Source: an uncultured Dysosmobacter sp. | GTDB taxonomy: Bacteria; Bacillota; Clostridia; Oscillospirales; Oscillospiraceae | NCBI RefSeq assembly: GCF_947631165.1 | Contig: NZ_CANRKH010000001.1 | Span: 146,395-210,394, forward strand | Length of the DNA stretch: 64,000 nt | Direction of reading: 5' to 3' | Shown: one piece after another, positions 44,088 to 60,293 of the stretch | Layout of the letters: every line of letters starts with the position of its first letter | Position numbering within the stretch: the first letter of the stretch is position 1 | Notes under the pieces: model-generated | What the model was told of the DNA's origin: nothing | The model's database searches: none | Seen by the model: only the letters and a program-made list of their open reading frames with translations | Position numbers and translations under genes: made by a program

Positions 44088-45119
44088 TCAGCTTTTCCGT
44101 CCTGCGGCGCGGAGATCCGCCAGCGCCTGGTAAAAGGCGGCGGCATCCAGGTCCCCGTAAGCGGCCTCTGTCTCCACCACCGCCTGCTCCGCTCCCCGCT
44201 GCAGCATGTGATCGAAGTAATCCTCTGTCAGCGCCTCTGGATCCAGCGGAAGCCGCCGGAGGATGGAAAAGCCCTCTTCCGACTCCAAAATGCCGGAACA
44301 CTGCCCCTCCTCCAGCGCTTTGGCCGCATCCAAAAGCGTACCAGACCACAGCTTCTCTTCTGGCAGCAGCGTACGGGGACCGGCAGGATCGTCTCCCGCT
44401 GCCGCTAAATCACTGAACACAGCTGCCTGGTCTGTTGCGTCGTTGAGCTGGGCAAAAAGTTTGGCTGCCCGCTGCCGGGCGGCCTCCCTGTCTTCCCCGG
44501 CAGCCACCAAGATGCGGTCCACCGTCAAAACGCCCTGTTCCTCCCCATAGTGGATCAAGTCCTCCTGTTTCGGTGCCAAAGGGCTGTCCGCCTCACCGGA
44601 AAGGCCCCACAGCTTTCCGTACAGCAGTCCGACCCCAGCCAGCTCTTCTGCCCGTTGGCGGTCCAGGCCCAAAGACGCAAGATCTGCCAGATAAGCCGCC
44701 TCGCCGCCCCGCTCCGCCGCCTGTTCCTCCCATTGGGCGGTCAGAATCTCCTGATCCGGCTCTGCCAGCGTACAGCCGTACTTATCCGCCCAGTTTTCCA
44801 CGGTGGCATACAGGGCCGTGTCCGCCAGGGCCTGATCCTTGGCATAGTCCGCCAGCGTCCCGCCGGCAACGGCAGTCTGCCAGTCCAGGGTCCCGCCAGT
44901 CTCCTGATAACGATCCCGGATGCGGTCGCAGGTATAGGCCAGCCAATACAGATACCGCCACCCCGGCACCGCCCGGCCATCCACTGTCAGCAGCGTCTCC
45001 TCCTCGGAGATCTCTGCCGCCCGGCCTAAAATAGGGGACGGGCCTTCTTCCCGCTCCCCGCTGCAGGCGGTCAGGAGCAGGCACAGCAAAAAACACAGCG
45101 CGGCTGCCCGTAATTTCAT
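44088..45119 (-). CDS. PrsA/SurA-like lipoprotein (putative peptidyl-prolyl isomerase/foldase)
   Basis: Start at MKLRAAAL. Lipobox LLTAC. C-terminal ..GILESEEGFSILRRL resembles a PpiC-type rotamase core. Confidence 0.6.
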   Translation of the reverse strand: MKLRAAALCFLLCLLLTACSGEREEGPSPILGRAAEISEEETLLTVDGRAVPGWRYLYWLAYTCDRIRDRYQETGGTLDWQTAVAGGTLADYAKDQALADTALYATVENWADKYGCTLAEPDQEILTAQWEEQAAERGGEAAYLADLASLGLDRQRAEELAGVGLLYGKLWGLSGEADSPLAPKQEDLIHYGEEQGVLTVDRILVAAGEDREAARQRAAKLFAQLNDATDQAAVFSDLAAAGDDPAGPRTLLPEEKLWSGTLLDAAKALEEGQCSGILESEEGFSILRRLPLDPEALTEDYFDHMLQRGAEQAVVETEAAYGDLDAAAFYQALADLRAAGRKS

Positions 45120-45617
45120 CGCTTCCACTTCCTCTCCCCCAGGTCGTCCCTCCATGTATATGCAGGGGTGGAGAGATATAGAAGCACAGTGGTGTGATTT
45201 CCCATTTTAATCATAGAGTATTTCAAAATGGGATCATTTAAAAAGGAGTATCCAAAATCATTCGCAATGTATTTGAGCTGAGAGGACAGTTAGATCATGA
45301 AAACTTTCATCTCAATCTGTCATTTTCCCGCCGTTTGCACCGTTCTATCTCGCCGCATAACGCAAAGCGAAATGGCGTTTATTTACCTAAAAGGGGTACC
45401 ACTTGCCTATTACAGGCTGAACTGCAATAAATCTATCGGCAAGTATCTGCGCGGTTAGCAAACAGCGAACCATACCTACGTAAATTGTTCTGACTACCCG
45501 GCTTGGTTTGATAAGTCAGGTGGTCGACGCAGAATTCCGACCAGCAACTGTTCTCTTACACTCTTTTGACCCTTGATTAGCATTCATGTGGTAAATACAT
45601 GGATTCTAAAACCACCA

Positions 45618-46652
45618 CTATTTCCCTTTCGAAATATCTCGAACGCTATTTCCCTCGCTAAGAATAGGCGAAAAAACCACGTTCCGTTTTGGGTCGTCAG
45701 GTTTTCTAATTCGCTCCATCATTAGGTCGGCTGCTGCGGTTGCGATTGCTACATCATCAAGACAAACCGTAGTAAGTGCGAGTCCGCTTTTCTTTGGAGC
45801 GGGAAGATAGTCCGAGCAAATGATACTTAAATCTTGGGGTATTCGTTTTCCGCCGAGAACAAACGCATCAATGATGCCGGAAGCTAGGGTACTGTTCATA
45901 CAAAATACACCGGTTGCGGAATAATCCCCACGTAGAAAACGCAAAGCAAATTCGTAACCATCATCATAAGTGAAGTTAGTTGGAAGAATGTTGCAGTCAT
46001 TAATGACCATTCCATTCTCTTTATAGGCCTCTCGAATCCCCCAAATTCTATTGCGCGAGGTTGCAGATTCATAAGTGCCACTGAGAATCATGATATCAGT
46101 GTGGCCGTTTTTGATAAAGTGACTACCGCCTATCAATCCAGCAGTGAAATTGTCAATGCTTACGACGTCTAGATTTAGAGTATTAGGATAATGATTTATC
46201 AGCACAATGGGACAATTGGAGTTGCGAATATCATCGTTAAAATCCGAATAGCCGACATAGCTCAAAATAAATATGCCCAAAAATTCACTGTGAGTCAGTT
46301 TTTTCAGATAATACTCCATGGTGGACCGGCTGCCACAGCAGTCTAGGGTAAACACAACACATCCCAGTTCTTTGAAATATCGGGTTAATGTTTGTATATA
46401 TCGAACATGTGTTGCCTGTGCATAGCTTATGGAGAGGTCCAGGGATATGACTGCAACGGCCTTTGATCCAAAGAGGCTCGCATGTTTGGACTTATACCCC
46501 AATTTTCTGATAGCTTTATCGATTTCTAATCGTGCACCTTCGCTAACAGATCCTTTGTTGGTAATCGCACGAGAAATGGTGGACTTAGATAGGCCAGTTT
46601 CTTTAACAATATCATCAATAGTAACTTTCAATGTTTTTTTGCCCCTTTCCAA
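45618..46652 (-). CDS. LacI-family transcriptional regulator
   Basis: 344 aa. N-terminal HTH VTIDDIVKETGLSKSTISRAITNKG, then a periplasmic-binding-protein-like sensor domain. Confidence 0.85.
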   Translation of the reverse strand: MERGKKTLKVTIDDIVKETGLSKSTISRAITNKGSVSEGARLEIDKAIRKLGYKSKHASLFGSKAVAVISLDLSISYAQATHVRYIQTLTRYFKELGCVVFTLDCCGSRSTMEYYLKKLTHSEFLGIFILSYVGYSDFNDDIRNSNCPIVLINHYPNTLNLDVVSIDNFTAGLIGGSHFIKNGHTDIMILSGTYESATSRNRIWGIREAYKENGMVINDCNILPTNFTYDDGYEFALRFLRGDYSATGVFCMNSTLASGIIDAFVLGGKRIPQDLSIICSDYLPAPKKSGLALTTVCLDDVAIATAAADLMMERIRKPDDPKRNVVFSPILSEGNSVRDISKGK

Positions 46653-46701
46653 TTAATTAATTAATTCATTTTAGCATATATCCTATGGAATGGGAAGAGA
46701 C

Positions 46702-46893
46702 TGGGAAAAACATCATTAAATGGGAAAAAGGCCATTTGGTGGGAAAAATGTCAACAATACTTGGTTAATAACAACAATTTACATATCTAAACGATGTAAA
46801 TCCAACCAAAATAATAAAAAAGATTGACAATGCTTGGCAAATATGGCATAGTATAGAGGGAAAGATGTCAATTTAATATTGGGAAAAACATCA
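46702..46893 (+). repeat. Array of five same-orientation copies of a ~13-14-nt motif, (T)GGGAAARAYRTCA
   Basis: Copies at 46702-46715, 46721-46734 (degenerate), 46740-46753, 46858-46870 and 46880-46893. The first three are spaced 19 bp apart. Confidence 0.7.
46824..46852 (+). promoter_or_regulatory. Candidate promoter of the island's plus-strand operon
   Basis: TTGACA (46824-46829), 17-nt spacer, CATAGT (46847-46852). Two repeat copies lie just downstream. Confidence 0.45.
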
Positions 46894-46913
46894 ATAGGAA
46901 AGAGGGAAACGCT

Positions 46914-47723
46914 ATGGAGTATAAAGATATCCGAGTATATGATGCTGGGGACCAAGTATCGGTAATTGAACTGAACCACCCCGAAAAACTTAATGCACTG
47001 ACCGATTATACCTGGGAAGAAATTGTGGACGCTCTCAAGAAAATAGAGATGGATGACACAGTCAACGCCGTTCTATTCAAAGGCGCCGGAAAGTCGTTCT
47101 GCGCTGGATTTGACATCGGGGAATCCACAAAAAACGGAAACTCCGACGCATGGGGGCAGTGGCTGTCATTCAAACGTTCTGATGAGTGCCATAATTATTT
47201 GTGGGATTTCCCAAAACCGACTGTCTTCGCAGTACAAGGATATTGCCTGGGAGGCGGATTTGAGCTAGCAAGCTTGGGTGATTTTGTCGTCTGTTCCGAG
47301 GATGCCGTGTTTGGGGAGACAGAACTGCGTTTTTGCTTGACACCTGGAACACGAGATGTATTTCTACTGGGCCTTCGCAATGCAAAAGAAATTATGATGC
47401 TGGCAGAAAAGTTCAGCGCACAGGATGCCTTGCGGTTGGGTGTTGTCAGCAGAGTATTTCCTGTGGACAAGCTGGATACAGAAGCTTTGAAGATAGCGAA
47501 GAAGTTAGCAAAGATGCCTACGGAAACTATGCAGTTGACCAAGCATATGCTCAACAAAGTTACCGATATTCAAGGCATGAAAATTATGGGGTCCTGGTCA
47601 TGGGATACCTTCCTAGCGGCAAAGCTGATAGTTCCCAAAGTTCGTCAAGAATTCAATAAAATCGGCGAAGAGCAAGGCATGAAGGCTGCTTTCAAATGGT
47701 TGAATGATCGCTACGATGATTAA
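46914..47723 (+). CDS. Enoyl-CoA hydratase/isomerase (crotonase) family protein 1
   Basis: 269 aa with GAGKSFCAGFD, GYCLGGGFELA and FGETEL, so both catalytic-Glu positions are present. Confidence 0.85.
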   Translation: MEYKDIRVYDAGDQVSVIELNHPEKLNALTDYTWEEIVDALKKIEMDDTVNAVLFKGAGKSFCAGFDIGESTKNGNSDAWGQWLSFKRSDECHNYLWDFPKPTVFAVQGYCLGGGFELASLGDFVVCSEDAVFGETELRFCLTPGTRDVFLLGLRNAKEIMMLAEKFSAQDALRLGVVSRVFPVDKLDTEALKIAKKLAKMPTETMQLTKHMLNKVTDIQGMKIMGSWSWDTFLAAKLIVPKVRQEFNKIGEEQGMKAAFKWLNDRYDD

Positions 47724-47762
47724 TCACCGTAGTTATCATAAATAAAATGGAGGAAAAAGAAG

Positions 47763-49061
47763 ATGAAAAAGTTTCTAGTTATCATTTTGGCACTTTTCAT
47801 GCTAGTCAGTATGACCGCTTGTGGCAAAGCACCTGCGGGAGAACCTGTTGCTGAACCAGAGAAGCCGGCTGACGTTGCGTACAACACAGAAGTAGAACCC
47901 TTCAGGGTCGCTGTGTTTATCGCACTAACTGGCGCAAACGCAAACTCTGCTGTTTTCCAGATTCAGGCTCTTGACCTAGCTGTTGAGCAAATCAATAATC
48001 ATGGCGGCATTGAGGGTCTGGATGGTGCCCCCATCGAACTAGTGTATTGCGATAACATGAGCGATGCTAATGCAATGAAGACTGTTGTTGAAAACGCGCT
48101 GGAGGATGAGTCAATTAATTTTGCTATGTTCCCGCTGGCTTCTACCTATACCGCACCTGCAATCGCCACTCTGTCTAAGCTGCAGTGTCCCGCTTTGACC
48201 ACTTCTCAGGCTGACTCCATCTTTGATCAGGGTTGCGACTACATCTATGGTATTGCACAGGTTTCCTCTAAGGCCGCTGCTGTTACAACCCAGTTCGTTT
48301 CTTATCTGGCCGAAAAGTACGGCGTAGATACTTCCAGAATCGGCTGCGTCGCCGTTGACAATGATTATGGCCGTATGAACATGGAAACTTTTGAAAAAAG
48401 ATATAGTGCGATGGATGGCTATGAGCTGATTTACTCCGAAGCATATCCTGCAGATACTGCCGATATGTCCTCTATTGTTACTGCTCTGAAAAACAAGGAT
48501 GTCCAGCTGCTCCACTCCATCAATTTGGATCAGGATGGCAAATTGTTTTTTGCCACTATCAAAGGTATGAATTACAATCCCTTGGTTATCGGTGGTGGTT
48601 CCGGCATTATGTACCCCACTTTCATTGAGGCTTGCGGTCCTGTCCTGGAAGGGGTCCTGTCCGGCACTCATACCAACCCCAACGCTTCCAACACAGAAGA
48701 CGATGAGATGTTCCAGGAACTGAAAGCGATGTGCTACGATAAATATGGTCACTATGGCGGTGAGTTCTTGGTCTCTTACTACTCTCAAATGCAGGTGCTA
48801 CACCAGTTGCTGAACGAGACTAAGTCTTATGACCGTCAGGTCAACAACAAAGCCATGAAAGAACTGGAATTCCATACCCTGTTCCCGAAAATCGATGCTG
48901 ATGGCAACTACACAGATATCCAGTATTTCGATGAGAAGGGCACCAGCCCCAACTCTACCACTGAGATGGCTCAGTTTCAGTATGATGCCAATGGCGAACT
49001 GTGGCCTACCTGCGTATATCCTGAAGCCCTGGCATCTGCCGAGATTCAGTGGAACAGATAA
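47763..49061 (+). CDS. Liv-type (HAAT family, Peripla_BP_6-like) substrate-binding lipoprotein, ligand unknown
   Basis: 432 aa. Lipobox VSMTAC. Followed by LivHMGF-like genes. Confidence 0.8.
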   Translation: MKKFLVIILALFMLVSMTACGKAPAGEPVAEPEKPADVAYNTEVEPFRVAVFIALTGANANSAVFQIQALDLAVEQINNHGGIEGLDGAPIELVYCDNMSDANAMKTVVENALEDESINFAMFPLASTYTAPAIATLSKLQCPALTTSQADSIFDQGCDYIYGIAQVSSKAAAVTTQFVSYLAEKYGVDTSRIGCVAVDNDYGRMNMETFEKRYSAMDGYELIYSEAYPADTADMSSIVTALKNKDVQLLHSINLDQDGKLFFATIKGMNYNPLVIGGGSGIMYPTFIEACGPVLEGVLSGTHTNPNASNTEDDEMFQELKAMCYDKYGHYGGEFLVSYYSQMQVLHQLLNETKSYDRQVNNKAMKELEFHTLFPKIDADGNYTDIQYFDEKGTSPNSTTEMAQFQYDANGELWPTCVYPEALASAEIQWNR

Positions 49062-49099
49062 AGCAGTTTATCCGGTAAGATTATAGCAGGGGAAGGACC

Positions 49100-49497
49100 C
49101 TTCTCCCGCTATTTTCTAAGGAAGAGAGCTAAACAAAACCATCCAAAAGAAAAGCGGGGACGGGTCCGCAGATGAGACGGGGCGTAGACAAGCAAAAAGG
49201 CGTGCGCAGACCATCACTTTTTTCGAAAAGCCCTGCCATCCAGTTGCCGCTCTGGGCTGTGCGAAGTCCAGATACGTAAGCAGTTTGTCGTAGAACACAG
49301 CGGCACTTTAGGATGTAAACAGTGTCACGTCCCGAATAATTTCCTGTCGGTAGGTAGTGGCAATCCCTTTCTGGTAGAGTTTTCTCACAAGTCAATTTTA
49401 CCAGAAAGGGTCCCGCTTTCTACAATATTAGAGTGTCTTTATGGTTTTAGCCATGGCCGGAATCCCTTGTTATTATTGTAGCGCTTTGCCCATGGCT
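49100..49497 (-). mobile_element. Degenerate transposase-like repeat, copy A
   Basis: 49261-49497 aligns by eye at ~75% identity with 55862-56105. The minus-strand translation parallels copy B (..STRKGL..YRQEIIRDV..SAAVFYDKL..ADPS..) but carries stops and a 1-nt deletion. Confidence 0.65.
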
Positions 49498-49522
49498 ATC
49501 TAGGGGAATTTTGAGAGGTGAA

Positions 49523-50404
49523 ATGACGATGGGTTGGGCAATTTTTCAATCTTTGGTAAATGGCATACTTATGGGAGGTACATACGCGTTGCTTGCCGTC
49601 GGAACGACAATTATTTTTGGTGTCATGCGTATGATCAACTTTGCCAGCAGCGCATTCATCATGCTGGGAATGTACGTTGCATGGTGGGCATGCAATCTGT
49701 TTCATGCAGGCGTATACGTTACACTTCCGTTCTCTGTTTTGGTCTTGGCGATATTGGCCTACCTTAGCTTTAAGCTTGCAATTGAAAAGGTAATGTTTCG
49801 AGATGCAGCGTCAGTTATTATCGTTACAATCGGTTTGATGTACGTGTTGCAGAACATCACTCTTATGATATTTGGCACAACTCCTCTAAACATTTTCTCT
49901 GATTTACGTATGAAATTCTATACGGTTTTAGGCATTACCACTCAAGCAATTCGTCTGATTTCTTTTGGCACATCAGTACTGTTGACCGTTATACTGGCAC
50001 TTGTAATCAATAAAACTTCTTATGGCAGATGCATGCGTGCAACCTCAGAAAGTCAGGAGATCGCTCAGATTTTAGGTGTGAACGCAAAGTTTGTATTTAT
50101 CTCCGCATGGATTATTGGTATTGTGCTTACGGGCATCGCAGGAACAATCATGTCCCCGCTGTATAACATTACAATTGGCGTCGGCAGCATTTTTGGATCC
50201 ACAGCTCTTATTGCCATTGTCTTAGGCGGTATGGGTGATATCAGGGGCGCATTTATATCCGGTATCGCGCTGGGCATTGTAGAGGCATTAGTCAGCGTGT
50301 TCGTTGCTCCTGAGTTAGGTCAGTCCGCAACATTCATCTTGTTCCTGGTGGTTATGAGATTCAAACCTCAGGGCCTGTTTGGGAGGGGGGAGCGTGTAGC
50401 ATGA
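49523..50404 (+). CDS. HAAT-family ABC permease (LivH-like)
   Basis: Polytopic membrane protein with MRMINFAS. ATG at 49523 or 49529 follows GAGAGGTG. Confidence 0.85.
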   Translation: MTMGWAIFQSLVNGILMGGTYALLAVGTTIIFGVMRMINFASSAFIMLGMYVAWWACNLFHAGVYVTLPFSVLVLAILAYLSFKLAIEKVMFRDAASVIIVTIGLMYVLQNITLMIFGTTPLNIFSDLRMKFYTVLGITTQAIRLISFGTSVLLTVILALVINKTSYGRCMRATSESQEIAQILGVNAKFVFISAWIIGIVLTGIAGTIMSPLYNITIGVGSIFGSTALIAIVLGGMGDIRGAFISGIALGIVEALVSVFVAPELGQSATFILFLVVMRFKPQGLFGRGERVA

Positions 50405-51426
50405 TTAATGATACTCTGAAAGGGCAGTTTTTTAAGAAGAGCACATTATTTGTATTGATTCCTGTTTTTCTGGTTGCACTCCTACTTCCTATGGTATTTA
50501 ACTCATTTTACATTATGTCCGTGCTGATTAACTGCCTGTTGTTTGCCTCTATGGGGTATGCTTGGAACCTTATTTCCGGCTATGGTGGCATGGTCTCCAT
50601 CTGTCACGCAGGATTCATTGCAATTGGGGCATACACGTGTTTCTTGATGTATATCAATTTTGGCATATCTCCGATTTTGTCCATGCCAATCGGAATACTG
50701 ATCTGCTATATCTTTGCTACGATCATGGGTCGGATTACTCTGAAATACAGAGGGCCGTTCTTTTCAATCAGCACTATAGTGTTTATTGAATTGTTTAGAA
50801 CCATGTTAATGTATTTCAAAGATATCACTAATGGTTCTTCGGGACTGGTCATTCCTTATTCCGAACCAGACCCACTGAACCTGCTATTTCCGAATAACGT
50901 TCCGTATTATTACATTGCTTTGGTGGTATTGCTTCTTTGTATGCTTGTATGCTGGCTTTTTATCAACTCCAAATCTGGCTACTACCTGCGTACGATCAAG
51001 GGCGATCAAGATGCCGCAGAGTCCTTAGGCATTGACGCGATGAGGGTTAAACTTCGCTCCTTTCAGTTGAGTGCTGTTATGACATCCGTAATCGGCGCTG
51101 TGTATGCACTGTTCTTTACCTACATTGAGCCGGCCACCATCTGCTCCATGGATCTGTCTATCAAAATCTGCTCTATCGTAATTATTGGAGGTATAGGTAC
51201 TTTCTTTGGCCCTCTGATTGGTGCGTTTGTATTGATTCCCTTGAGTGAGGTGGCATTGAGAGTATTCCCTGATGGCGGTGCGCAATTGTTCTATGGACTA
51301 GGTCTGATTATCATTATCCTGGTGCTGCCAGGCGGCATTGAATCCTTGTTCTCTAAACATCTCATTCCATATATCAGGAAGAAGAAAACCCTTTGTAACA
51401 AGGACAAGGAGCGTGATGTATCATGA
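50401..51426 (+). CDS. HAAT-family ABC permease (LivM-like)
   Basis: 341-aa membrane protein. ATGA overlap with the upstream gene. Confidence 0.85.
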   Translation: MINDTLKGQFFKKSTLFVLIPVFLVALLLPMVFNSFYIMSVLINCLLFASMGYAWNLISGYGGMVSICHAGFIAIGAYTCFLMYINFGISPILSMPIGILICYIFATIMGRITLKYRGPFFSISTIVFIELFRTMLMYFKDITNGSSGLVIPYSEPDPLNLLFPNNVPYYYIALVVLLLCMLVCWLFINSKSGYYLRTIKGDQDAAESLGIDAMRVKLRSFQLSAVMTSVIGAVYALFFTYIEPATICSMDLSIKICSIVIIGGIGTFFGPLIGAFVLIPLSEVALRVFPDGGAQLFYGLGLIIIILVLPGGIESLFSKHLIPYIRKKKTLCNKDKERDVS

Positions 51427-52142
51427 GTGAGATTTTGACAATCAAGGATCTATCTATATCGTTTGGCGGAACAAAGGCAGTTCAACATCTCAGCTTTAAT
51501 GTAAATGAAGGCGAAATCTTGGGTATGATTGGCCCCAACGGTTCTGGCAAGTCCACCACAATCAATCTTATTACCGGCGTTTATAAAATGGATTCCGGTG
51601 AGATTTTCTTTGACGGGAAACCTATCACAAATAAGATGGACGTGAAAGATCGCGCACGTATGGGTCTGGGCAGAACGTTCCAAACGCCAAAGCCTTTCGG
51701 TCACATGACGGTCTATGATAATATTCTGGCGATTGCCTTGCAGAAGTACAACTTTAAAGAAGCAAGAGTGCACACGGAAGAGATCCTAAAAATCACTGAG
51801 TTAAATAGCGTTCGGGATTTGTTAGGAGCAAAGTTGCCTATTGAGCAACGCAAATGGTTGGATTTTGCAAGGACCTTGGCCACGGAACCTAAACTGGTAA
51901 TGATGGACGAGGCCTTGAGCGGCCTGAATATCACGGAAATGAACGAGAGTGTGGAAATGATAAGACGCATCAATAAGGAGCTGAACCTGACCATAATCTT
52001 TATTGAGCATGTGATGAAAGCAATAGTATCTCTGTGTGATAGAGTTCTGGTTTTGAACGAAGGCACATGGCTGGCAGAGGGCAAGCCAGAGGAAATTCTA
52101 GCAAAGTCCGAAGTCATTCAGGCGTACATAGGAGGAGAATGA
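51423..52142 (+). CDS. HAAT-family ABC ATP-binding protein (LivG-like)
   Basis: GPNGSGKST, GRTFQTPKPF and MMDEALSGLN motifs. 239 aa, without the insertion seen in the core livG. Confidence 0.88.
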   Translation: MSEILTIKDLSISFGGTKAVQHLSFNVNEGEILGMIGPNGSGKSTTINLITGVYKMDSGEIFFDGKPITNKMDVKDRARMGLGRTFQTPKPFGHMTVYDNILAIALQKYNFKEARVHTEEILKITELNSVRDLLGAKLPIEQRKWLDFARTLATEPKLVMMDEALSGLNITEMNESVEMIRRINKELNLTIIFIEHVMKAIVSLCDRVLVLNEGTWLAEGKPEEILAKSEVIQAYIGGE

Positions 52143-52852
52143 TGGGGGAGATTTTACGTATTGATAACCTATGTGCAGGCTATGGCGATTTGCAGGTGCT
52201 TTTTGACGTAAACCTGCATGTTAACGAGGGTGAGATTGTGTCTCTGGTTGGCTCAAACGGCGCAGGAAAAACAACGCTTCTGCGTTTGATCTCTGGCCTG
52301 GAGAAAATCAAGAGTGGTACCATTACCTATCGGGGAGAAGATCTTTCCAAGTATAAGCCTTATCAGCGTGCGTCTCTAGGTATTTCACATATTCCTCAAG
52401 GCAGAGGTATTCTCAGAAAGTTATCTGTCAAAGAAAACTTGGCGTTGGGTGGGCTAAATAAAAACGCTGCCAATGTCAACGAAAAAATTGAAGAGGCTTA
52501 TGTGAGATTCCCTATTCTGAAGGAGCGCCAAAATCAGGTAGCTGGTTCTCTGAGTGGCGGTGAGCAACAGATGCTGGCCATTTCCAGAGCATTGATTATG
52601 AATCCCAAGATTATTATCATGGATGAACCGTCTATGGGCCTTGCCCCCATCGTGGTGAAAGAGGTTTTCAATATCATTAAGAATCTTGCCGACAGCGGAT
52701 TGTCTATTTTGTTGATTGAGCAGAATCTTGTCCAGGCTTTGGGTGTTGCCCACCGCGGCTATGTCATTGAAACCGGACGCATTGTGATGGAAGGCGGCGG
52801 TAAAGAACTTCTTGCGCGAAAAGATATCCAGACTGCTTATCTGGGCATTTAA
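52139..52852 (+). CDS. HAAT-family ABC ATP-binding protein (LivF-like)
   Basis: Start at MMGEILRI overlaps the upstream stop. Motifs GSNGAGKTT, LSGGEQQMLAISRAL and IIMDEPSMGLAP. Confidence 0.88.
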   Translation: MMGEILRIDNLCAGYGDLQVLFDVNLHVNEGEIVSLVGSNGAGKTTLLRLISGLEKIKSGTITYRGEDLSKYKPYQRASLGISHIPQGRGILRKLSVKENLALGGLNKNAANVNEKIEEAYVRFPILKERQNQVAGSLSGGEQQMLAISRALIMNPKIIIMDEPSMGLAPIVVKEVFNIIKNLADSGLSILLIEQNLVQALGVAHRGYVIETGRIVMEGGGKELLARKDIQTAYLGI

Positions 52853-52955
52853 GGCATCCATTGACCAATCAATCATTCTGGGCTTTGCTATTAGAAAACG
52901 TGATTATATTTTAGACTCTGTGCTGAAAATGCCTCAAAAGAGCCATATTTTCAAT

Positions 52956-52989
52956 CCCCAAAGGCAGGTGGTTGCGTCTGCCTTTGGGG
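52956..52989. terminator. 12-bp stem-loop after the island ABC operon
   Basis: CCCCAAAGGCAG...CTGCCTTTGGGG, a perfect stem. There is no clear U-tract, so terminator function is uncertain. Confidence 0.45.
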
Positions 52990-53341
52990 CAAGCATAGCT
53001 CGATCACGCTTGCCAACCCATCTTATGGAATAATTTTGCCGATGATCTCCAGAAATTTTTCCTGCTTCGTTTTCTTCTTGGGTAGCTATACGCAATATTG
53101 TGATGCACAGTGAGCGAATCGGAGTTTTACTTGCCCTAGCTTTAATGAATTCATCACATCTGTTTCCTATCTGGCAGTGTGGGTTAAATCAAAGTCTCCT
53201 TCAGTATTTTTGCGGCTATTTGGGTTGCCTTTGCTTGCCAAGCCACAACTCCCAAATGAGCACTGGCTTAATATTGGTGCAAGAGGAGGATCATCTGCAA
53301 AACGGCTGCTCCTCTTCTGGTTAATCAGAATAGGAGGAAAT

Positions 53342-54346
53342 ATGTCAAAGTTTACAAATTGGCCGAAGGTGGAACTTCATCGCCACATTGAAGGCAGTAT
53401 GCGAGTGAATACTTATGTTGAGCTTGCCAGAAAAAACGGCGTTGAAATGCCTTCTTGGGAAAAAGATTTTATCCGGCGGGAGATCGAACTGAGAGAGGAT
53501 GCGCCTCGGGATTTCTCTGGTTTTATCCGCGCTTTTACCTATCTTCGTGCCGTGTTGAAAGATAAGGAAGCGTTCACCAGAATTATTATCGAATGCATTG
53601 AGGATGCGGCAAAAGAGAATATCAAATATCTGGAGCTGCGCTTTAATCCCGGGGCACTGGTGAAAAATGGGATTCCTTACGAAGATATCATTTCCTCAGT
53701 GCATGAAGGTGTTCGCTATGGAGAAGCGCATAACGATATCCGTATTGGTATGATCGGTATCATCGGCCGAGATATGCCTCCTGAACTGTGCGAAAAGGCG
53801 ACTGAATTTTGCGTCAAATATGCTCATAACGGCATTGACGGCATTGATTTGGCCGGAGCAGAAACCAATTCTCCGACACCATTTAAACCCTATTTCGATT
53901 GTGCAAGAAATGCCTCCCTGTTCGTGACAAACCATGCCGCAGAAATTTACGCACCCACCAACATTATCGAATCGATTGAACAGAATAACGCTATCCGCAT
54001 CGGACATGCAACACGGGTCATGCAATCTGCAGAGGCGCTTCAGTGCTTAAAGAATCACCAAGTATTGGTAGAGGGATGCTTGATAAGCAATATTTTTACT
54101 GGAGCAATTGATAAAATTGAGAACCACCCGTTGCACGAACTATACAAGATGGGAATTCCCGTTTTGATGAATACCGACGACCCTGCTGTTTTAGGAGAGA
54201 TTGCACTGGAAGATGAGTATCAGATTGCACAGGATGTACTGGGCTTTACAGACGAAGAGATTCAAAATACGATCATCAGAAGTCTTGATTACATTTTCAG
54301 ACCTGAATTAAAAAAAGAGTTACTTCCAAAATTTGTATTTTCGTAA
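53342..54346 (+). CDS. Adenosine/adenine-deaminase-family zinc amidohydrolase (substrate unknown)
   Basis: Start follows TAGGAGGAAAT. Motifs: ELHRHIEGS (HxH), GIDLAGAE, NHAAE (HAGE equivalent), RIGHA, EGCLISN and NTDDP. Confidence 0.8.
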   Translation: MSKFTNWPKVELHRHIEGSMRVNTYVELARKNGVEMPSWEKDFIRREIELREDAPRDFSGFIRAFTYLRAVLKDKEAFTRIIIECIEDAAKENIKYLELRFNPGALVKNGIPYEDIISSVHEGVRYGEAHNDIRIGMIGIIGRDMPPELCEKATEFCVKYAHNGIDGIDLAGAETNSPTPFKPYFDCARNASLFVTNHAAEIYAPTNIIESIEQNNAIRIGHATRVMQSAEALQCLKNHQVLVEGCLISNIFTGAIDKIENHPLHELYKMGIPVLMNTDDPAVLGEIALEDEYQIAQDVLGFTDEEIQNTIIRSLDYIFRPELKKELLPKFVFS

Positions 54347-54367
54347 CTCAACATGCTAGGAGGAACT

Positions 54368-55558
54368 ATGACAAAAGCATTAGAAGGAATTAGAGTTATT
54401 GATCTTGGGCGATATATTGCAGCGCCTTATGGCGCCATGATGATGGCGGACATGGGAGCGGATGTTATCCGCATAGATAAGCCCGGTGGAGAACCAGATC
54501 GTCGTCTGCGCCCCTTCGTTGAGGGGACCAGCATCTATGCACAGACATTTAATAGAAATAAACGATGCATAACCCTGAATTTGAGAACTGAGGAAGGCAA
54601 GCAATACCTGATTGAAATGATTAAGAAAGCGGATGTCCTTATTAATAATTTCAGGCCCGGTATCATGGACAGTATGGGCTTGTCCTTTGAAAAAATTCAG
54701 GAGTTAAACCCCAGAATGATCGTTGCCAGTATTTCCGGCTTTGGCCAGAAGGGTCCGTTAAAAGATCGGGCCGCATTTGACGGAATTCCCACTGCCATGG
54801 CAGGGGTTATGTATGAAAATTTTTCCTACGGCAAGGGTCCCAAACCTTTTGGTACGCCTGTGGCCGATGTAACTACTGCATACATCAATCTTATCGCTAT
54901 TCTCATGGCATTGTTGCAGAGAGAAAAAACCGGCAAGGGGCAATATATTGACACAGCAATGACGGACTGTATGGTACCCTATCTGGAATCCATGATCCCG
55001 ACATATTTTGTAAACGGCCCAACTCCAAATTTTGGGAAGCGCAACGGCGGCGACCCTACCTCTGCACCGGCCAATGTTTTCAAAGCCAGCGACGGCTACG
55101 TATATATTCATGCTGGTATTAGTGCACATTATATACTGCTGGCTGATATGATCGGTGATGAGCGGCTAAATCGGCCGGAGTACCGGGATCAAAATTACAG
55201 ACGCGACCACTTTGAAGAAGTAGAAGCTGTGGTAGGCGAATGGGTTGCAAAACATACTGCCAAGGAAGTGGAAGATGCGGTATCAGCTTTAGGAATTCCC
55301 ACTTCGAAGTTGAATACCATCGGCGATCTACTGGAGTCCGATTACGTGAAATCTCGCAATCAGATTATATGGATGGAGGTCCCTGGCATTGAGGGGAAGT
55401 ATCCTTTCCCAGGGAGCCCGCTAAAACTATCCGATTGCATGGTGGACACATATAAGTCATGCGGTGTAGCGGGTTGTGATAACGATGAGGTATTCAAAGA
55501 TATCTTCGGCCTGGACGAGGCGAAGATTGCGGAATTAAGAGAAAAAGGAATCATTTAA
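54368..55558 (+). CDS. Type III (CaiB/BaiF/Frc-family) CoA-transferase
   Basis: Start at MTKALEGIRVIDLGRYIAAPYGAMMMADMGADVIRIDKP follows AGGAGG. Contains ISGFGQKGP...AAFD, carrying the catalytic-Asp region. Confidence 0.85.
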   Translation: MTKALEGIRVIDLGRYIAAPYGAMMMADMGADVIRIDKPGGEPDRRLRPFVEGTSIYAQTFNRNKRCITLNLRTEEGKQYLIEMIKKADVLINNFRPGIMDSMGLSFEKIQELNPRMIVASISGFGQKGPLKDRAAFDGIPTAMAGVMYENFSYGKGPKPFGTPVADVTTAYINLIAILMALLQREKTGKGQYIDTAMTDCMVPYLESMIPTYFVNGPTPNFGKRNGGDPTSAPANVFKASDGYVYIHAGISAHYILLADMIGDERLNRPEYRDQNYRRDHFEEVEAVVGEWVAKHTAKEVEDAVSALGIPTSKLNTIGDLLESDYVKSRNQIIWMEVPGIEGKYPFPGSPLKLSDCMVDTYKSCGVAGCDNDEVFKDIFGLDEAKIAELREKGII

Positions 55559-55559
55559 T

Positions 55560-56105
55560 ATCGAGAGATGAGCAAAGCTGCCCAAAGGCACTCCTGCCCA
55601 GAAGCTTTAAATTGGGAGTCGTGGCATCCGCAGTCCGTGCGCGGAGCATAAGTCTACTTGAATCGGGGACATTCTCGGTCAATAGAAAGCCTGTAGTCAT
55701 CAGGAATCGTTTTGTATTGGATTCAGCCCCGGTTTTTCTTCCCATTGTTCCAGTTTTGTGGTACAGGGCACAGTCTGGGTCGGCTTTGGAGTGGTTTTCC
55801 GACTTGAACTTATCCCTGGAAAAGGATCTTGGATTGTTCTGTTTTGTGTTCGCGGCAACGAGCGTAGCGTTCAGACCGGTAAACAGCTTGCCGCAGAATA
55901 CTGCGGCACTTCGGGATGTGAACGGAATCACGTCCTGGATAATTTCCTGTCGGTAGATAGCGGCCAGTCCCTTTCTGGTTGAGTTTTTTCGCGAGTCAAT
56001 TTTACTAAAAAAGGTCCCGCTTTTCACAATGTGGAGTGAATTCCGGTTTTAGCCATGGCCGGGATCCCTTACTATTACTGTGTTTTTAGAGTTTTTCTCA
56101 TGGCT
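55560..56105 (-). mobile_element. Degenerate transposase-like repeat, copy B (158-codon ORF still open)
   Basis: Minus-strand ORF 55551..56027 reads ..LVAANTKQN....SKADPDCALYHK...TTGFLLTENVPDS. This resembles the region around the DPDA/first DDE block of IS5/IS1182-type transposases, but it is far too short. Confidence 0.55.
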
Positions 56106-56133
56106 GTTTAACATCTAATATCGGAGGGATACC

Positions 56134-57279
56134 ATGGATTTCGAATTGACAAAAGCGCAGGAGCAGTTCAGGAAAACGATACGCGGGTTCACAGAGAATG
56201 AAATCAGGCCGATAGCAGGTGCTGTGGATCGCTATGAAGCTACCGTCGACGACAACATAAAAAAGCTTGCCGCGTTGCATATCAACGGCATTGCCATCCC
56301 CGTCGAAGAGGGTGGCGCAGGTGGCGATCATGTCTGCTATGCTATTGCCTGCGAGGAAGTGGCCAAGGCATGTACGTCCACTGCAACCCTGGTGAGCGCT
56401 AAACTGGCTGGCCTTCTTATTGAGATGCTCTATTACTACGGCACTCCAGCGCAAAAGGAAAAATATCTTCAGCCCTTCTTGCAGGGTGAGTTGGAAGGGT
56501 GTTTCGGCCTAACTGAGCCGGAAGCGGGATCTGACCCCGGTCGTCTGTGTACTACGGCGATAAAAGATGGCAGCAACTATATCATTAATGGCACGAAGAC
56601 ATTTATCACCGGCGCCCCTCTGGCGGATTTTGCTATTGTGATGGCATCTACCAATAAGAGTTTGGGGACCAAAGGCATCACTGCATTCCTGGTTGACTGC
56701 GATACTCCAGGCTTCTCAAAAGGAAAACCGGAACAGAAGATGGGCCAGCGCGGCTTGCCTGTGGGCGAGTTGATCATGAAGAATGTCGTGGTTCCTGAAA
56801 CAGCAATTATTGGTAAAGAGGGCATGGGTTTTCGCTTGGCCATGAAATCTCTGGACTGTGGCCGTTTAGGCATTGCTTCTGTGGCACTTGGTATTGCTGA
56901 AGGCGCATATGAAGCAGCTGTGAAGTATTCCAAGGAGCGTGTTCAGTTTGGTGCACCGATTTGTAATAATCAGGCCATTCAGTTCATGTTGACTGATATG
57001 AAGATGCGTATTGATGCCGCACAATTGCTGGTATATCGGGCAGCCGTATCTAAGGATAAGGGTAGTTCATCGTTCCCCTTTGAGGCATCAATGGCAAAGG
57101 TATATGCATCTGAAGTAGCAATGTTTGTCACAACAAAAGCCGTTCAGATTCACGGAGGCTATGGTTACATGAATGACTATCCTGTAGAACGTATGATGCG
57201 TGATGCGAAGCTGACAGAAATTTACGAGGGCACCAGCGAAATCCAACGTATGGTTTTGGCTAGAACGATCTTAAAATAA
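56134..57279 (+). CDS. Butyryl-CoA-dehydrogenase-like acyl-CoA dehydrogenase
   Basis: 381 aa. MDFELTKAQE..., GLTEPEAGSD and C-terminal RDAKLTEIYEGTSEIQRMV closely parallel clostridial Bcd from memory. Confidence 0.88.
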   Translation: MDFELTKAQEQFRKTIRGFTENEIRPIAGAVDRYEATVDDNIKKLAALHINGIAIPVEEGGAGGDHVCYAIACEEVAKACTSTATLVSAKLAGLLIEMLYYYGTPAQKEKYLQPFLQGELEGCFGLTEPEAGSDPGRLCTTAIKDGSNYIINGTKTFITGAPLADFAIVMASTNKSLGTKGITAFLVDCDTPGFSKGKPEQKMGQRGLPVGELIMKNVVVPETAIIGKEGMGFRLAMKSLDCGRLGIASVALGIAEGAYEAAVKYSKERVQFGAPICNNQAIQFMLTDMKMRIDAAQLLVYRAAVSKDKGSSSFPFEASMAKVYASEVAMFVTTKAVQIHGGYGYMNDYPVERMMRDAKLTEIYEGTSEIQRMVLARTILK

Positions 57280-57297
57280 TATAGGGGTGGTTTGATT

Positions 57298-58104
57298 ATG
57301 AAATTAATAGTCTGCATCAAGCAAGTTCCTGATACGACGGAAGTTAAGCTTGATCCAAAAACCGGCACATTAATTCGTGACGGTGTTCCCAGTATCATTA
57401 ACCCCGATGATAGAGCCGCCCTTGAGGTAGCTCTGAAGATGAAGGATGCTAATTTAGGAACCACGGTCACTGTAATTTGCATGGGCCCAAAGCAGGCAGA
57501 TGCCGCGGTACGTGAAGCGTTGGCCATGGGTGCAGATAGTGCCATAATTGTCAGTGATCGTGCATTTGCGGGCAGTGATACCTGGGCGACAGCCAACGTT
57601 ATTTCCTCGGCAATTCAGAAGATTATGGATTATGACTTAGTGTTCTGTGGTCGTCAGGCGATCGATGGCGATACTGCGCAAGTTGGGCCTCAGATTGCCG
57701 AGCGCCTGAACATCCCTCAGGTAACCTATGCTAGGAGCGTCAAGGTTCTTGGAGATAGTCGTTATGAGGTGTGTCGTGAGTTGGACGACGAACAGCAGAT
57801 CGTCGAAGTAACAGGGCCGGCATTAATTACCGTTGTACATGGTTTGGAGCCGATTCGCTATCCCGATTTCAGACGTATTTTCCAAGCGTATAGTGGTGTA
57901 TTTGAGGTGCTCAACTGGTCTCAGGAAGAGCTGAAGATCGATGCCAACAAAATTGGCCTAAAGAGTTCTCCTACTAATGTAAAGTGTACTTTCCCGCCGG
58001 AACTGCGGAAGTCAGGTATTCGTCTGGAGGGTACCAATGAAGAAATGGTCAAGCAGCTATTTGATAATATGCTTGGCGAGCACATCTTGAAAAGGAGGGC
58101 TTGA
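57298..58104 (+). CDS. etfB: Electron transfer flavoprotein beta subunit
   Basis: MKLIVCIKQVPD... and GRQAIDGDTAQVGPQIAE. Confidence 0.9.
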   Translation: MKLIVCIKQVPDTTEVKLDPKTGTLIRDGVPSIINPDDRAALEVALKMKDANLGTTVTVICMGPKQADAAVREALAMGADSAIIVSDRAFAGSDTWATANVISSAIQKIMDYDLVFCGRQAIDGDTAQVGPQIAERLNIPQVTYARSVKVLGDSRYEVCRELDDEQQIVEVTGPALITVVHGLEPIRYPDFRRIFQAYSGVFEVLNWSQEELKIDANKIGLKSSPTNVKCTFPPELRKSGIRLEGTNEEMVKQLFDNMLGEHILKRRA

Positions 58105-58106
58105 GA

Positions 58107-59120
58107 ATGTCTATTGATATAAAACTTTGCAAAGACGTGTGGGTTTTTATTGAGATCAAAGATAAAAAAATTGAGAATACTTCGCTTGAATTATTGGGCG
58201 TTGGCAAAATGCTGGCTGCAGATCTAAAACAGAAACTGTGTGCAGTTGTTCTTGGCAAAGATGTGACTCAGTACACAAGTTTGCTGTTCTCATTTGGCGC
58301 AGACGTAGTTTATAACTGTGAACACGAACTGTTGGAGACATATACCACAGATGCTTTCACAAACGTTCTTGATGAGATTGTCAAAGAGAAAAAGCCTGAC
58401 ATTTTTCTCTTTGGTGCCACCAATGTGGGAAGGGATTTGGCACCTAGGTTGGCTGCACGGTTGAACACTGGCTTAACTGCGGACTGCACGGCACTATCCA
58501 TTGACCCTGAAAGCCGACTGCTACAACAGACACGCCCTGCCTTTGGTGGAAATATCATGGCAACCATCATCAATCCCACGCATCGTCCACAAATGGCCAC
58601 AGTTCGTCCCGGTGTTATGAATAAAATTGATCCCAAAGAGTGTTATGGCATTGTAGAAAACTATCCAGTCAAACTTCCTGCCGAAAATCTTCGTGTACAG
58701 ATAAAGAAGATCATCAAAAATATCTCCAAGAATGTGAATCTTGTGGATGCGGATATCATTGTATCTGGTGGTCGAGGCCTGGGTGGCCCTGAAGGATTTG
58801 AGCTTATCCAGCAGCTAGCCAATGCACTGGGCGGTGTCGTAGGCGCTTCCCGCGCAGCGGTGGACAGCGGATGGATTTCTAATGATCACCAGGTTGGTCA
58901 GACCGGAAAAACTGTCAAGCCTATGATTTATATAGCTTGCGGTATTTCTGGTGCCATTCAGCATCAAGCCGGCATGACAGGTAGCAAGTGTATCATTGCA
59001 ATTAACAAAAATCCGGATTGCTCAATGATGAAAATAGCAAACTACGCTTTGTGCGGAGATCTGTACGATATTATTCCATTAATGGTCAAGACCATTCAAG
59101 AACAAAATATTACGAAGTGA
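58107..59120 (+). CDS. etfA: Electron transfer flavoprotein alpha subunit
   Basis: ATG follows AAGGAGGG. C-terminal FAD domain: VSGGRGLG, GASRAAVDSGW, QVGQTGK.V.P..YIACGISGAIQH. Confidence 0.9.
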   Translation: MSIDIKLCKDVWVFIEIKDKKIENTSLELLGVGKMLAADLKQKLCAVVLGKDVTQYTSLLFSFGADVVYNCEHELLETYTTDAFTNVLDEIVKEKKPDIFLFGATNVGRDLAPRLAARLNTGLTADCTALSIDPESRLLQQTRPAFGGNIMATIINPTHRPQMATVRPGVMNKIDPKECYGIVENYPVKLPAENLRVQIKKIIKNISKNVNLVDADIIVSGGRGLGGPEGFELIQQLANALGGVVGASRAAVDSGWISNDHQVGQTGKTVKPMIYIACGISGAIQHQAGMTGSKCIIAINKNPDCSMMKIANYALCGDLYDIIPLMVKTIQEQNITK

Positions 59121-59131
59121 GGCAGGGCATT

Positions 59132-59944
59132 ATGGAATTTACACAAATTATTTATCAGAAAGAACAATTTGTTTCCACGATTATCCTTAACCGTCCTGAA
59201 AAGTTAAACGCATTGACCGATGTGATGTTGCGAGAAGTTAGAGAAGCGTTGAGAGATTCTGATGCAGATGACAACATCCGAGTCATTATTCTAAAGGGAG
59301 CAGGGCGTGCGTTCTCTGCCGGATTTGATCTGTCCCCTGAAGTCTCCACCTATTCTACCGCACAGGAATGGCGCGGGCATATTACCAATGGAAATGAAAC
59401 TTTCCGGACAATTTGGGAAATTGAGAAGCCCGTGATTGCCATGGTACAGGGCTATTGCCTAGGAGGGGCCTTCGATTTTACGATGTCCTGCGATATTGTT
59501 ATTTCCTCTGATAAGGGCGTATTTGGTGAACCAGAGAATTTATTTGGCGGGGTTCCTATGTATCTGTTGTTGCCATATATCACGAATATGCGCGTTGTTC
59601 GCAGAATTTTGCTGACCGGCGAGAACTTCTCAGCACAACAGGCGCTGGATTGGAATCTGATTTCCTATGTGGTACAGCATGACAGATTGGAGGAGGAAAC
59701 TCTGAAATTGGCCAAGCGTATCGCAGCCCTACCCTTTGGCACACCGCAATTGAATAAACGCACTCTGAATCGTATTTACGATAATATGGGCGCGAAGGAA
59801 GCCATTATGACAAGTGGCGACGCCGCAATTTGGGCATTGTCACGAGCCAAAGAGCCGGAATTGAGTGAGTTCTTTGAGAAAGTTAACACAATCGGAACAA
59901 AGGCTGCCCTCAAGTGGCGCAATGATAAATTCGAGCAGTTGTAA
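59132..59944 (+). CDS. Enoyl-CoA hydratase/isomerase (crotonase) family protein 2
   Basis: 270 aa with GAGRAFSAGFD, GYCLGGAFDF (Asp at the first catalytic-Glu position) and FGEPEN. The C-terminal tail is paralogous to crotonase 1. Confidence 0.85.
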   Translation: MEFTQIIYQKEQFVSTIILNRPEKLNALTDVMLREVREALRDSDADDNIRVIILKGAGRAFSAGFDLSPEVSTYSTAQEWRGHITNGNETFRTIWEIEKPVIAMVQGYCLGGAFDFTMSCDIVISSDKGVFGEPENLFGGVPMYLLLPYITNMRVVRRILLTGENFSAQQALDWNLISYVVQHDRLEEETLKLAKRIAALPFGTPQLNKRTLNRIYDNMGAKEAIMTSGDAAIWALSRAKEPELSEFFEKVNTIGTKAALKWRNDKFEQL

Positions 59945-60061: not shown

Positions 60062-60083
60062 TCGTTAAAAGTTGGGCCTGACG

Positions 60084-60139
60084 ACAAAAAGAAAAACTGG
60101 GCTGGGACAGTGTTTTCTCTGCCCAGTTTTTCTTTTTGT
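60084..60139. terminator. Perfect 19-bp hairpin at the right island border
   Basis: ACAAAAAGAAAAACTGGGC (60084-60102) pairs with GCCCAGTTTTTCTTTTTGT (60121-60139). The loop is 18 nt. Confidence 0.7.
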
Positions 60140-60293
60140 CAACAGGTCCATTATTATGCCTTATTCGGGAAAAACGACAAAGTATTGTGGAAATCTGTGA
60201 TGCAAGTGGGGTGCGAATAATTTGGGGATAACCTCTAAGAACATATCCGCCAAAGGCGGAACACAGCAATTCCCACCTCCTAATTCCTAGTTT

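Follow-up and report, generated by a model that had tools for sequence, protein, structure and literature searches.

A rare, conserved CoA-transferase and crotonase operon with an adenosine-deaminase-family hydrolase in a gut Dysosmobacter

The CaiTABCDE/FixABCX system of Escherichia coli makes reductive use of an imported, substituted short acid by means of a CoA-recycling type III transferase, a crotonase-family dehydratase, an acyl-CoA dehydrogenase (ACAD)-type enoyl-CoA reductase and an electron-transfer flavoprotein (Etf), and in CarCDE and AcrABC an ACAD and a bifurcating-type Etf reduce a specialised enoyl-CoA derived from an imported acid. Enzymes of these families stand beside an adenosine-deaminase-family hydrolase and an ATP-binding cassette (ABC) importer in a block of approximately 14 kb in a gut Dysosmobacter (assembly GCF_947631165.1, contig NZ_CANRKH010000001.1), analysed here within a 64,000-nt stretch of that contig (the window). 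A first-pass annotation of positions 46914-59944, an interval that holds every gene of the block except lacI, which falls just outside it, had read the set as one functional module without a described counterpart. Open reading frames and family matches placed 13/13 genes as it had stated, and the motifs it had quoted (HxH, DLAGAE, HAAE and NTDDP in the deaminase, DGDTAQVGP in EtfB, and an Asp in crotonase 2) are all present.

The block is a conserved, rare operon without a match among described pathways, most suitably classed as a variant of the reductive CoA-transferase/crotonase/bifurcating-reductase pathways in which a nucleobase-type deaminase forms the front end. The reading preferred here, held tentatively and at a little less than even confidence, is that the block was acquired as one operon and serves the catabolism of an imported carboxylic acid bearing an adenine-type (6-aminopurine-like) group; the sequence evidence leans toward such an adenine-bearing acid as substrate but does not establish it.

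Gene content and comparison with described systems

Twelve of the 13 genes lie on the plus strand and lacI alone on the minus strand:

45618-46652, minus strand: LacI-family regulator, divergent from the operon (Pfam LacI and Peripla_BP_3/1/4)
46914-47723, plus strand: crotonase 1 (ECH_1 165 bits; GGGFE ... GETE)
47763-49061, plus strand: lipoprotein substrate-binding protein of an HAAT (Liv-type) importer (Peripla_BP_6 120.7 bits)
49529-50404, plus strand: permease 1 (UrtB/LivH-like matches)
50401-51426, plus strand: permease 2 (LivM/UrtC-like matches)
51423-52142, plus strand: ATPase 1 (LivG/UrtD-like matches)
52142-52852, plus strand: ATPase 2 (LivF/UrtE-like matches)
53342-54346, plus strand: adenosine-deaminase-family hydrolase (PF00962 241.6 bits; TIGR01430 238.8 bits)
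54368-55558, plus strand: type III (CaiB/BaiF) CoA-transferase (CoA_transf_3 335 bits)
56134-57279, plus strand: short-chain acyl-CoA dehydrogenase/enoyl-CoA reductase, Bcd-like (closest structure 5OL2_C; YEGTSE catalytic Glu present)
57298-58104, plus strand: EtfB, predicted bifurcating type (motifs and structure scores)
58107-59120, plus strand: EtfA, the Etf partner, adjoining EtfB
59132-59944, plus strand: crotonase 2 (ECH_1 148 bits; GGAFD ... GEPE)

Compared with cai/fix, the window has an ABC importer, the deaminase, two crotonase paralogues and a clostridial bifurcating-type Etf. Scores stay below the equivalog cut-offs for CaiB (150 against 413), CaiA (192 against 540) and FixA (101 against 219), and CaiT, CaiC, CaiE and FixCX were found neither among the 13 genes nor in related loci. 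Bcd-EtfAB of Clostridia (5OL2) is the top structure for both the dehydrogenase and EtfB (262 bits) and shares the motifs and the catalytic Glu, whereas the window genes belong to a substrate-specific operon and not to a crt-bcd-etf-hbd butyrate operon; the NCBIfam EtfB model gives 345 against a cut-off of 445. CarA, CarB, lactoyl-CoA dehydratase (Lcd) and the family I propionate CoA-transferase of the Car and Acr systems are absent from the window. AcrC, AcrB and AcrA score 468.5, 266.4 and 395.4 against cut-offs of 640, 475 and 600, respectively, and Car was compared by PDB score only, where the dehydrogenase gives 396 bits with Clostridioides difficile Bcd (5OL2_C) and 328 bits with CarC. 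Glutarate pathway models are likewise below cut-off (succinate-glutarate CoA-transferase 213.6 against 750, glutaryl-CoA dehydrogenase 279.2 against 470). Full-text literature searches (gene-set combinations, pyridoxolactonase, t6A catabolism) found no matching pathway. That the first-pass annotation could match the set to no described system is borne out by these comparisons.

Conservation in other lineages and a sister cluster

Orthologues of the block, 42-70% identical and one-to-one by reciprocal comparison, are clustered in at least three other lineages of 40-61% GC, with shuffled gene orders and different regulators (LacI, LysR, CdaR). The neighbourhood-conservation test that had been proposed for a single functional module is therefore positive. 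Control by LacI, also part of the earlier reading, describes the window, where lacI is divergent, but is not a fixed trait, as other lineages carry LysR or CdaR-type regulators.

In the first lineage (loci L006/L014, GC 0.56-0.61) the order is crotonase 2, a glycyl-radical enzyme, the binding protein, two permeases, two ATPases and the deaminase; the CoA-transferase and crotonase 1 are divergent and are followed by the CdaR-type regulator. A second (L010/L011, GC 0.40) opens with a minus-strand crotonase 2 and continues with LysR, the ABC genes, deaminase, CoA-transferase, crotonase 1 and dehydrogenase, soon after which the L010 contig ends. The third (L013/L016/L027-L030, GC 0.48), made up of the Saccharofermentanales metagenome-assembled genome GCA_050951865.1 and JGI or Logan contigs, runs from the ABC genes through deaminase, CoA-transferase, dehydrogenase, EtfB, EtfA and crotonase 2 to lacI (minus strand) and crotonase 1, after which the ABC genes, deaminase and CoA-transferase appear a second time. 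The window order is a circular permutation of this one, cut between crotonase 2 and LacI, and a LacI orthologue (42%) occupies the same position in L016/L027. EtfA of the Saccharofermentanales loci has a ferredoxin domain that the window EtfA lacks.

Identities to the window proteins are 59-61% for binding proteins, 57-66% for permeases, 58-70% for ATPases, 51-67% for crotonase 1 (L010, L014, L016, L022, L025) and 44-70% for crotonase 2. The invariant core is the importer, the deaminase right after ATPase 2, the type III CoA-transferase and both crotonases. The dehydrogenase-Etf genes are accessory, not core: the window and the Saccharofermentanales loci have them, and the stretch seen of L006/L014 does not. 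Between crotonase 2 and the binding protein, L006/L014 instead encode an orphan glycyl-radical enzyme of 757 aa (L006 2853-5126, L014 6449-8722), which shows the Cys and Glu of an eliminase loop (GCVE) and a glycyl motif, RVSGFSAYF. Propanediol dehydratase, CutC and PflD are its nearest relatives; its scores fall far short of all equivalog cut-offs, and no activating enzyme for it was seen within 10 kb.

Gene duplication was observed in the Saccharofermentanales version. In L027 1-20600 (GCA_050951865.1, JBMNJW010000008.1) the block from binding protein to CoA-transferase occurs as a tandem duplicate (period 13.83 kb) whose copies share 98.8% identity over 6.77 kb. The two CoA-transferase copies of L028 are only 90.6% identical, so the duplication is no assembly artefact and is older in some strains. 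The head and tail of L029 overlap exactly over 79 nt.

The cluster is rare. A pattern for the binding protein gave 0 matches in 185,579 GTDB species genomes and one short contig in JGI metagenomes, and the crotonase 2 pattern found, in the same species genomes, only the sister-cluster locus L031 described below. The other 79 loci of that pattern hold lone crotonases of at most 41% identity, mostly from Dehalococcoidia and Proteobacteria, with no cluster neighbours. The Saccharofermentanales version is the most frequent, its crotonase 2 being indexed in 33 blocks of the collection. A plasmid collection held only 26-28% relatives of the binding protein.

Relatives of crotonase 2 (54% and 44%) led to a sister cluster in human-gut genomes (L022-L024, L031 from HRGM_Genome_2646, and L025/L026, which include a Hadza sample), where it is more widespread than the window cluster. 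Orthologues of crotonase 1 (51-53%) and crotonase 2 (44-54%) are kept, and CoA activation is provided by two type III transferases, one of them an orthologue of the window CoA-transferase at 48% identity, or by an ADP-forming acyl-CoA synthetase. The sister cluster also has two 3-hydroxyacyl-CoA dehydrogenases, two or three Fe alcohol dehydrogenases, an MBL lactonase, a Bmp-type ABC importer and a CdaR-type regulator of the kind seen in L014; L022 adds an SDR resembling sugar 1-dehydrogenases, acetate kinase and PduL. Unlike the window it has no HAAT importer, PF00962 deaminase or dehydrogenase-Etf. Among solved structures, the Bmp binding protein comes closest to the Treponema pallidum purine nucleoside receptor, Borrelia BmpA/BmpD and the atrazine/guanine-binding AtzT, most of which bind purine nucleosides or amino-N-heterocycles. 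At the edge of L025 a TRZ/ATZ-type aminohydrolase gene begins; this family includes the 8-oxoguanine, 5'-deoxyadenosine and 5'-methylthioadenosine/S-adenosylhomocysteine deaminases. Vitamin B6 catabolism was considered for the sister cluster and set aside as a weak lead only, the family matches (4-pyridoxolactonase 90-93, FHMPC dehydrogenase 104 and 148, B6 ABC binding protein 68-70 bits) all being far below cut-offs.

Deaminase, CoA enzymes and candidate substrates

The deaminase has the same sequence as WP_298028980.1 ("adenosine deaminase [uncultured Dysosmobacter sp.]"). It passes the curated cut-offs of TIGR01430 (238.8 against 216.55) and PF00962 (241.6 against 27) and misses the PRK09358 equivalog models (213 against 459, and lower). 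Its translation contains the catalytic motifs HRH, DLAGAE, NHAAE and NTDDP, and its closest structures are the bacterial adenosine deaminases (ADAs) 6N91 and 6N9M, with which it shares the fold, the Zn ligands, the catalytic Glu/His/Asp and the purine N1/N3/N7 contacts. It differs from bacterial Add in its identity of at most 38% to generic ADAs, in D19E, M155G and H157D, which presumably lie close to where the ribose binds, in S103N, and in its genomic context, which is unique. Among 5.8 billion proteins the subfamily has six other 90%-identity clusters, at 43-56% identity; beyond it, at 38% or less, are generic deaminases, from Chloroflexi where the source is named. Every subfamily deaminase on a long enough contig has the same gene company, and the gene lies directly 3' of ATPase 2 in every related locus.

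Seven subfamily members were aligned with mouse ADA, whose numbering is used, and 113 outgroup sequences. The Zn ligands H15, H17, H214 and D295 are kept in 7/7 members, as are the catalytic and purine-contact residues E217, H238, D296 and G184, which are also seen in the 6N91 alignment. Met155 is replaced by Gly and His157 by Asp (7/7), Ser103 by Asn, and many other conserved positions, including pocket-lining ones, are changed relative to the nearest deaminases. Position 155 presumably lines the ribose 5' side (Met155 of ADA, Asp172 of the Plasmodium enzyme); a literature check on this found nothing, and it is given little weight.

The first-pass annotation had proposed an imported, CoA-activated carboxylate that possibly bears an amino or amidine group. 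The module reading stands, but the intact purine-contacting residues point to an adenine-type group and not to a generic amino or amidine carboxylate, and because they are kept, the hydroxycinnamates, betaines and plain dicarboxylates that it had named as candidates are less likely substrates. These contacts, together with the nucleoside/N-heterocycle-type importer of the sister cluster and the second nucleobase deaminase in one version of it, are the main reason to favour a purine-bearing acid.

The CoA-transferase is full length (PF02515 335 bits over residues 10-366), and its catalytic-Asp region, SGFGQKGPLKDRAAFDGIPTAMAG, contains the GFGQxGP...[FY]D motif of Frc and CaiB. The curated families and structures nearest to it have small dicarboxylates as substrates (mesaconate, oxalate, glutarate, hydroxymethylglutarate), and those relatives (Mct, Frc, YfdE, succinate-glutarate, succinate-hydroxymethylglutarate) often use succinyl-CoA. 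Its scores are below every equivalog cut-off examined (Frc, YfdE, Mct, succinate-glutarate, CaiB), the top score being 252.5 against 700, and the distant relatives P0129 and P0148 have contexts unrelated to the cluster.

The two crotonases are separate conserved paralogues (31-36% identical to each other) of the unassigned PRK08272/PRK08290 groups, and their closest structure, 4K29, is of unknown function. At the equivalents of rat Glu144 and Glu164, crotonase 1 has Glu and Glu (GGGFE, GETE), with Gly at the first position in the L016 orthologue, and crotonase 2 has Asp and Glu in every orthologue examined. The Asp noticed earlier at the first Glu position is thus real and conserved, but it is weak evidence for the non-canonical chemistry read from it; catalytic residues alone do not decide between hydratase, isomerase, lyase and hydrolase.

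EtfB gives 181-262 bits with the bifurcating structures 5OL2_B, 6FAH_B, 4KPU_B, 7KOE and 7QH2_B and 82-90 bits with non-bifurcating Etf structures. It has all three of DGDTAQVGP (bifurcating FAD), RAFAG (the NAD motif RxFxG) and SPT, which are conserved segments of bifurcating EtfAB complexes, the DGDTAQVGP segment being absent from non-bifurcating Etfs (PMC9232219). EtfAB is predicted from these motifs and scores to be of the bifurcating (group 2) type, in agreement with the earlier remark that DGDTAQVGP is typical of such Etfs, and a small aliphatic enoyl-CoA is the probable substrate of the Bcd-like dehydrogenase. The HAAT importer is complete (one Peripla_BP_6 protein, two BPD_transp_2 permeases and two ATPases); it falls short of the LivJ, LivH, LivM, LivG and LivF equivalog cut-offs, and its substrate is therefore probably not a branched-chain amino acid.

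In the preferred reading the Liv-type ABC system would import the acid and the deaminase would hydrolytically strip the ring amino group or, alternatively, act on the purine after its release. The type III CoA-transferase would place CoA on the carboxylate, with either the end product of the pathway or else succinyl- or acetyl-CoA as donor. The crotonases would exploit the acidic alpha-proton of the thioester for a beta-elimination or dehydration and then a second hydration, isomerisation or elimination, giving a short enoyl-CoA that the Bcd-like dehydrogenase and bifurcating EtfAB would reduce with NADH, also reducing ferredoxin, and the saturated acyl-CoA would hand its CoA to the next substrate molecule. 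This logic copies, by analogy, that of the Cai, Car and phenyllactate-type reductive pathways; we infer the step order, the dehydrogenase direction, the crotonase roles and the substrate class.

Candidate substrates are speculative. N6-succinyladenosine-type conjugates might give fumaryl-CoA and then succinyl-CoA as CoA donor, while nucleoside 5'-carboxylic acids or purinyl aldonic acids such as eritadenine might fit with regulators of sugar-acid type and with the diol-dehydratase-like glycyl-radical enzyme. A broader proposal, offered with low confidence, makes the crotonases and the CoA-transferase the core of a so far undescribed CoA-thioester route by which anaerobes would dismantle nucleoside- or nucleobase-linked acids, in which the bond to the purine would be broken, or the sugar-like chain opened, by beta-elimination and hydration rather than by a nucleosidase or phosphorylase; the enoyl-CoA would pass to the bifurcating reductase, and the window and sister clusters would be two entry branches.

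Several observations weigh against a purine-bearing acid as the substrate of a reductive operon. No candidate substrate explains every cluster variant, and the cluster has no linked gene for a nucleosidase or for purine salvage. Neither a riboswitch nor any other RNA or ligand clue was found in the island or three orthologous loci. The nearest solved relatives of the binding protein are plain amino-acid binders, with weak scores, and the TRZ/ATZ-type deaminase lies at the edge of one sister locus only (L025). L006/L014, without dehydrogenase-Etf in the stretch seen, have the glycyl-radical eliminase, so the reductive step is not universal. Finally, the change of Asp19 to Glu is not subfamily-specific, because the nearest outgroup deaminases also carry Glu; we assume that Glu19 is typical of ADA-family adenine deaminases, a lead only, for which a literature check was unsuccessful.

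The best surviving alternative, which is unlikely, places CoA activation first. A crotonase would expel adenine or adenosine from an N-linked acid, such as an N6-(dicarboxyethyl) conjugate, the deaminase would make the step irreversible by destroying the leaving group, and the enoyl-CoA (e.g. fumaryl-CoA) would be reduced by dehydrogenase-Etf to an acyl-CoA (succinyl-CoA) that acts as CoA donor. The succinyl-CoA and C4-C6 dicarboxylates used by the nearest relatives of the CoA-transferase are consistent with this, as are the closeness of the deaminase to genuine bacterial ADAs (6N91/6N9M) and its passing of TIGR01430, the amino-acid-like importer, and a nucleosidase being superfluous. The proposal comes from chemical reasoning only, however, and it leaves the glycyl-radical variant unexplained; the importer-deaminase pairing suggests that the deaminase acts on the imported compound, and the many changed pocket-lining positions are unexpected for plain adenosine.

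That no heterocycle is involved seems less likely still. The CoA genes would then serve the reductive use of a beta-hydroxy or beta-amino acid (carnitine- or beta-alanine-like), with an ordinary purine-salvage deaminase riding along with the transporter; the parallel of the gene set to CaiB/CaiD/CaiA/FixAB, the amino-acid-like binding protein and the match to the generic adenosine deaminase model would fit. Against this, the deaminase keeps its place beside the transporter in rearranged loci of lineages that share only 43-56% identity, its subfamily is extremely rare and met only in this context, and the sister cluster has a nucleoside-type importer and, in one version, another nucleobase deaminase nearby.

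A monocyclic amino-azine carboxylate (e.g. 4-aminopyrimidine-5-carboxylate, of the thiamine catabolite type), whose ring the crotonases would hydrate and hydrolytically open after deamination and CoA activation, is improbable. Crotonase pairs act as hydratase and ring hydrolase in Dch/Oah and BadK/BadI, a parallel to the anaerobic benzoyl-CoA pathway, and BadI is among the crotonase 1 matches (122 bits); the weak B6 catabolic matches of sister-cluster proteins would also agree. Those matches are nevertheless far below cut-offs and outscored by generic families, except for the binding-protein match, which is the sole one for that protein. D296, the purine N7 contact, is kept and would probably sit against the substrate carboxylate, and the resemblance of the dehydrogenase to Bcd suggests that its enoyl-CoA is small and aliphatic.

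A mosaic of unrelated cargo, the caveat of the first-pass annotation, or an already characterised pathway (cai/fix, Car, Acr, glutarate) is very improbable: long gaps with repeats and family-level resemblance speak for it, but the mosaic fails because 13/13 genes have one foreign composition and travel together in other lineages, and a known pathway is opposed by CaiA, CaiB, FixA, AcrA, AcrB, AcrC and glutarate scores far below cut-off, by the absence of the hallmark partners CaiT, CaiC, FixCX, CarAB and Lcd, and by the lack of a literature match.

Island boundaries, control region and wider meaning

The operon is a single horizontally acquired block of foreign composition. Window GC drops to 45% between approximately 45.2 and 60.3 kb, compared with approximately 60-65% around it; per-gene GC is 42-49% and GC3 39-52% in all 13 island genes, versus GC3 of 70% and 82% in two flanking host genes. 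The flanks are a lipoprotein gene without a Pfam match on the left (44088-45155, minus strand) and mfd on the right (60294-63815, minus strand; Pfam domains read from the same gene in L001). L001, an independent assembly, carries this island too, between the same flanks. Non-coding features of the island are:

46653-46913, no strand: control region, with a promoter-like site and four GGGAAARAYRTCA copies
49276-49479, no strand: intergenic repeat copy 1, approximately 205 nt, in the binding-protein/permease gap
55879-56081, no strand: intergenic repeat copy 2, approximately 205 nt, in the CoA-transferase/dehydrogenase gap
60073-60150, no strand: hairpin with 35-nt arms (86% complementary) and an 8-nt loop, at the right junction of the island beside the mfd 3' end

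The promoter-like site (46824-46852: TTGACA, 17 nt, CATAGT, with TG upstream) is flanked in the spacer between lacI and crotonase 1 by exact GGGAAARAYRTCA copies at 46703, 46741, 46858 and 46881. The whole window has seven matches with at most one mismatch, versus 0.47 expected, and 4/4 exact copies are in the spacer; a similar copy, GGGAAAACGTCA, occurs in the LacI-crotonase 1 spacer of L027. The array is a candidate operator. It is a direct repeat, which is unusual beside the LacI-type palindrome.

Three island gaps are long, at 467, 489 and 575 bp, compared with approximately 172, 8-23 and 36 bp in orthologous loci. Two of them share the approximately 205-nt non-coding repeat, whose copies are 81% identical and contain a hairpin with 17-bp arms (CCCTTTCTGGTAGAGTT ... 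AATTTTACCAGAAAGGG). The repeat was not found in orthologous loci; a weak relative is a 73%-identical stretch in the Subdoligranulum variabile record OY725848.1, and the repeat may be a small mobile or regulatory element. The third gap (52853-53341, 489 bp, from ATPase 2 to the deaminase; 8-23 bp in orthologous loci) has no repeat partner, Pfam match or Rfam match, and could interrupt translational coupling or contain an internal promoter. The insertion-sequence scars mentioned in the first-pass annotation have their real basis in these long gaps and the shared repeat; a Pfam search found no transposase fragments in the gaps.

At the left junction, 462 bp of AT-rich (36-47% GC) non-coding DNA (45156-45617) separate the host lipoprotein gene from the 3' end of lacI, and the analysis found neither an integrase nor a tRNA, nor any direct repeat of the right junction. 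The right-junction hairpin, which returned only spurious miRNA-like matches, could be a terminator or a junction remnant. Part of it resembles positions 200-258 of L010/L011.

If the preferred reading is true, the operon would represent a new substrate-specific branch of the reductive electron-sink pathways in gut and digester anaerobes, and the first of them to begin with a nucleobase-type deaminase. The small protein set and the short list of candidate compounds make the question directly testable. The reading would give functions to a rare ADA subfamily, a conserved crotonase pair and an orphan glycyl-radical eliminase, all now only generically annotated, and would link these proteins to a more widespread, likewise unassigned cluster in human-gut genomes.

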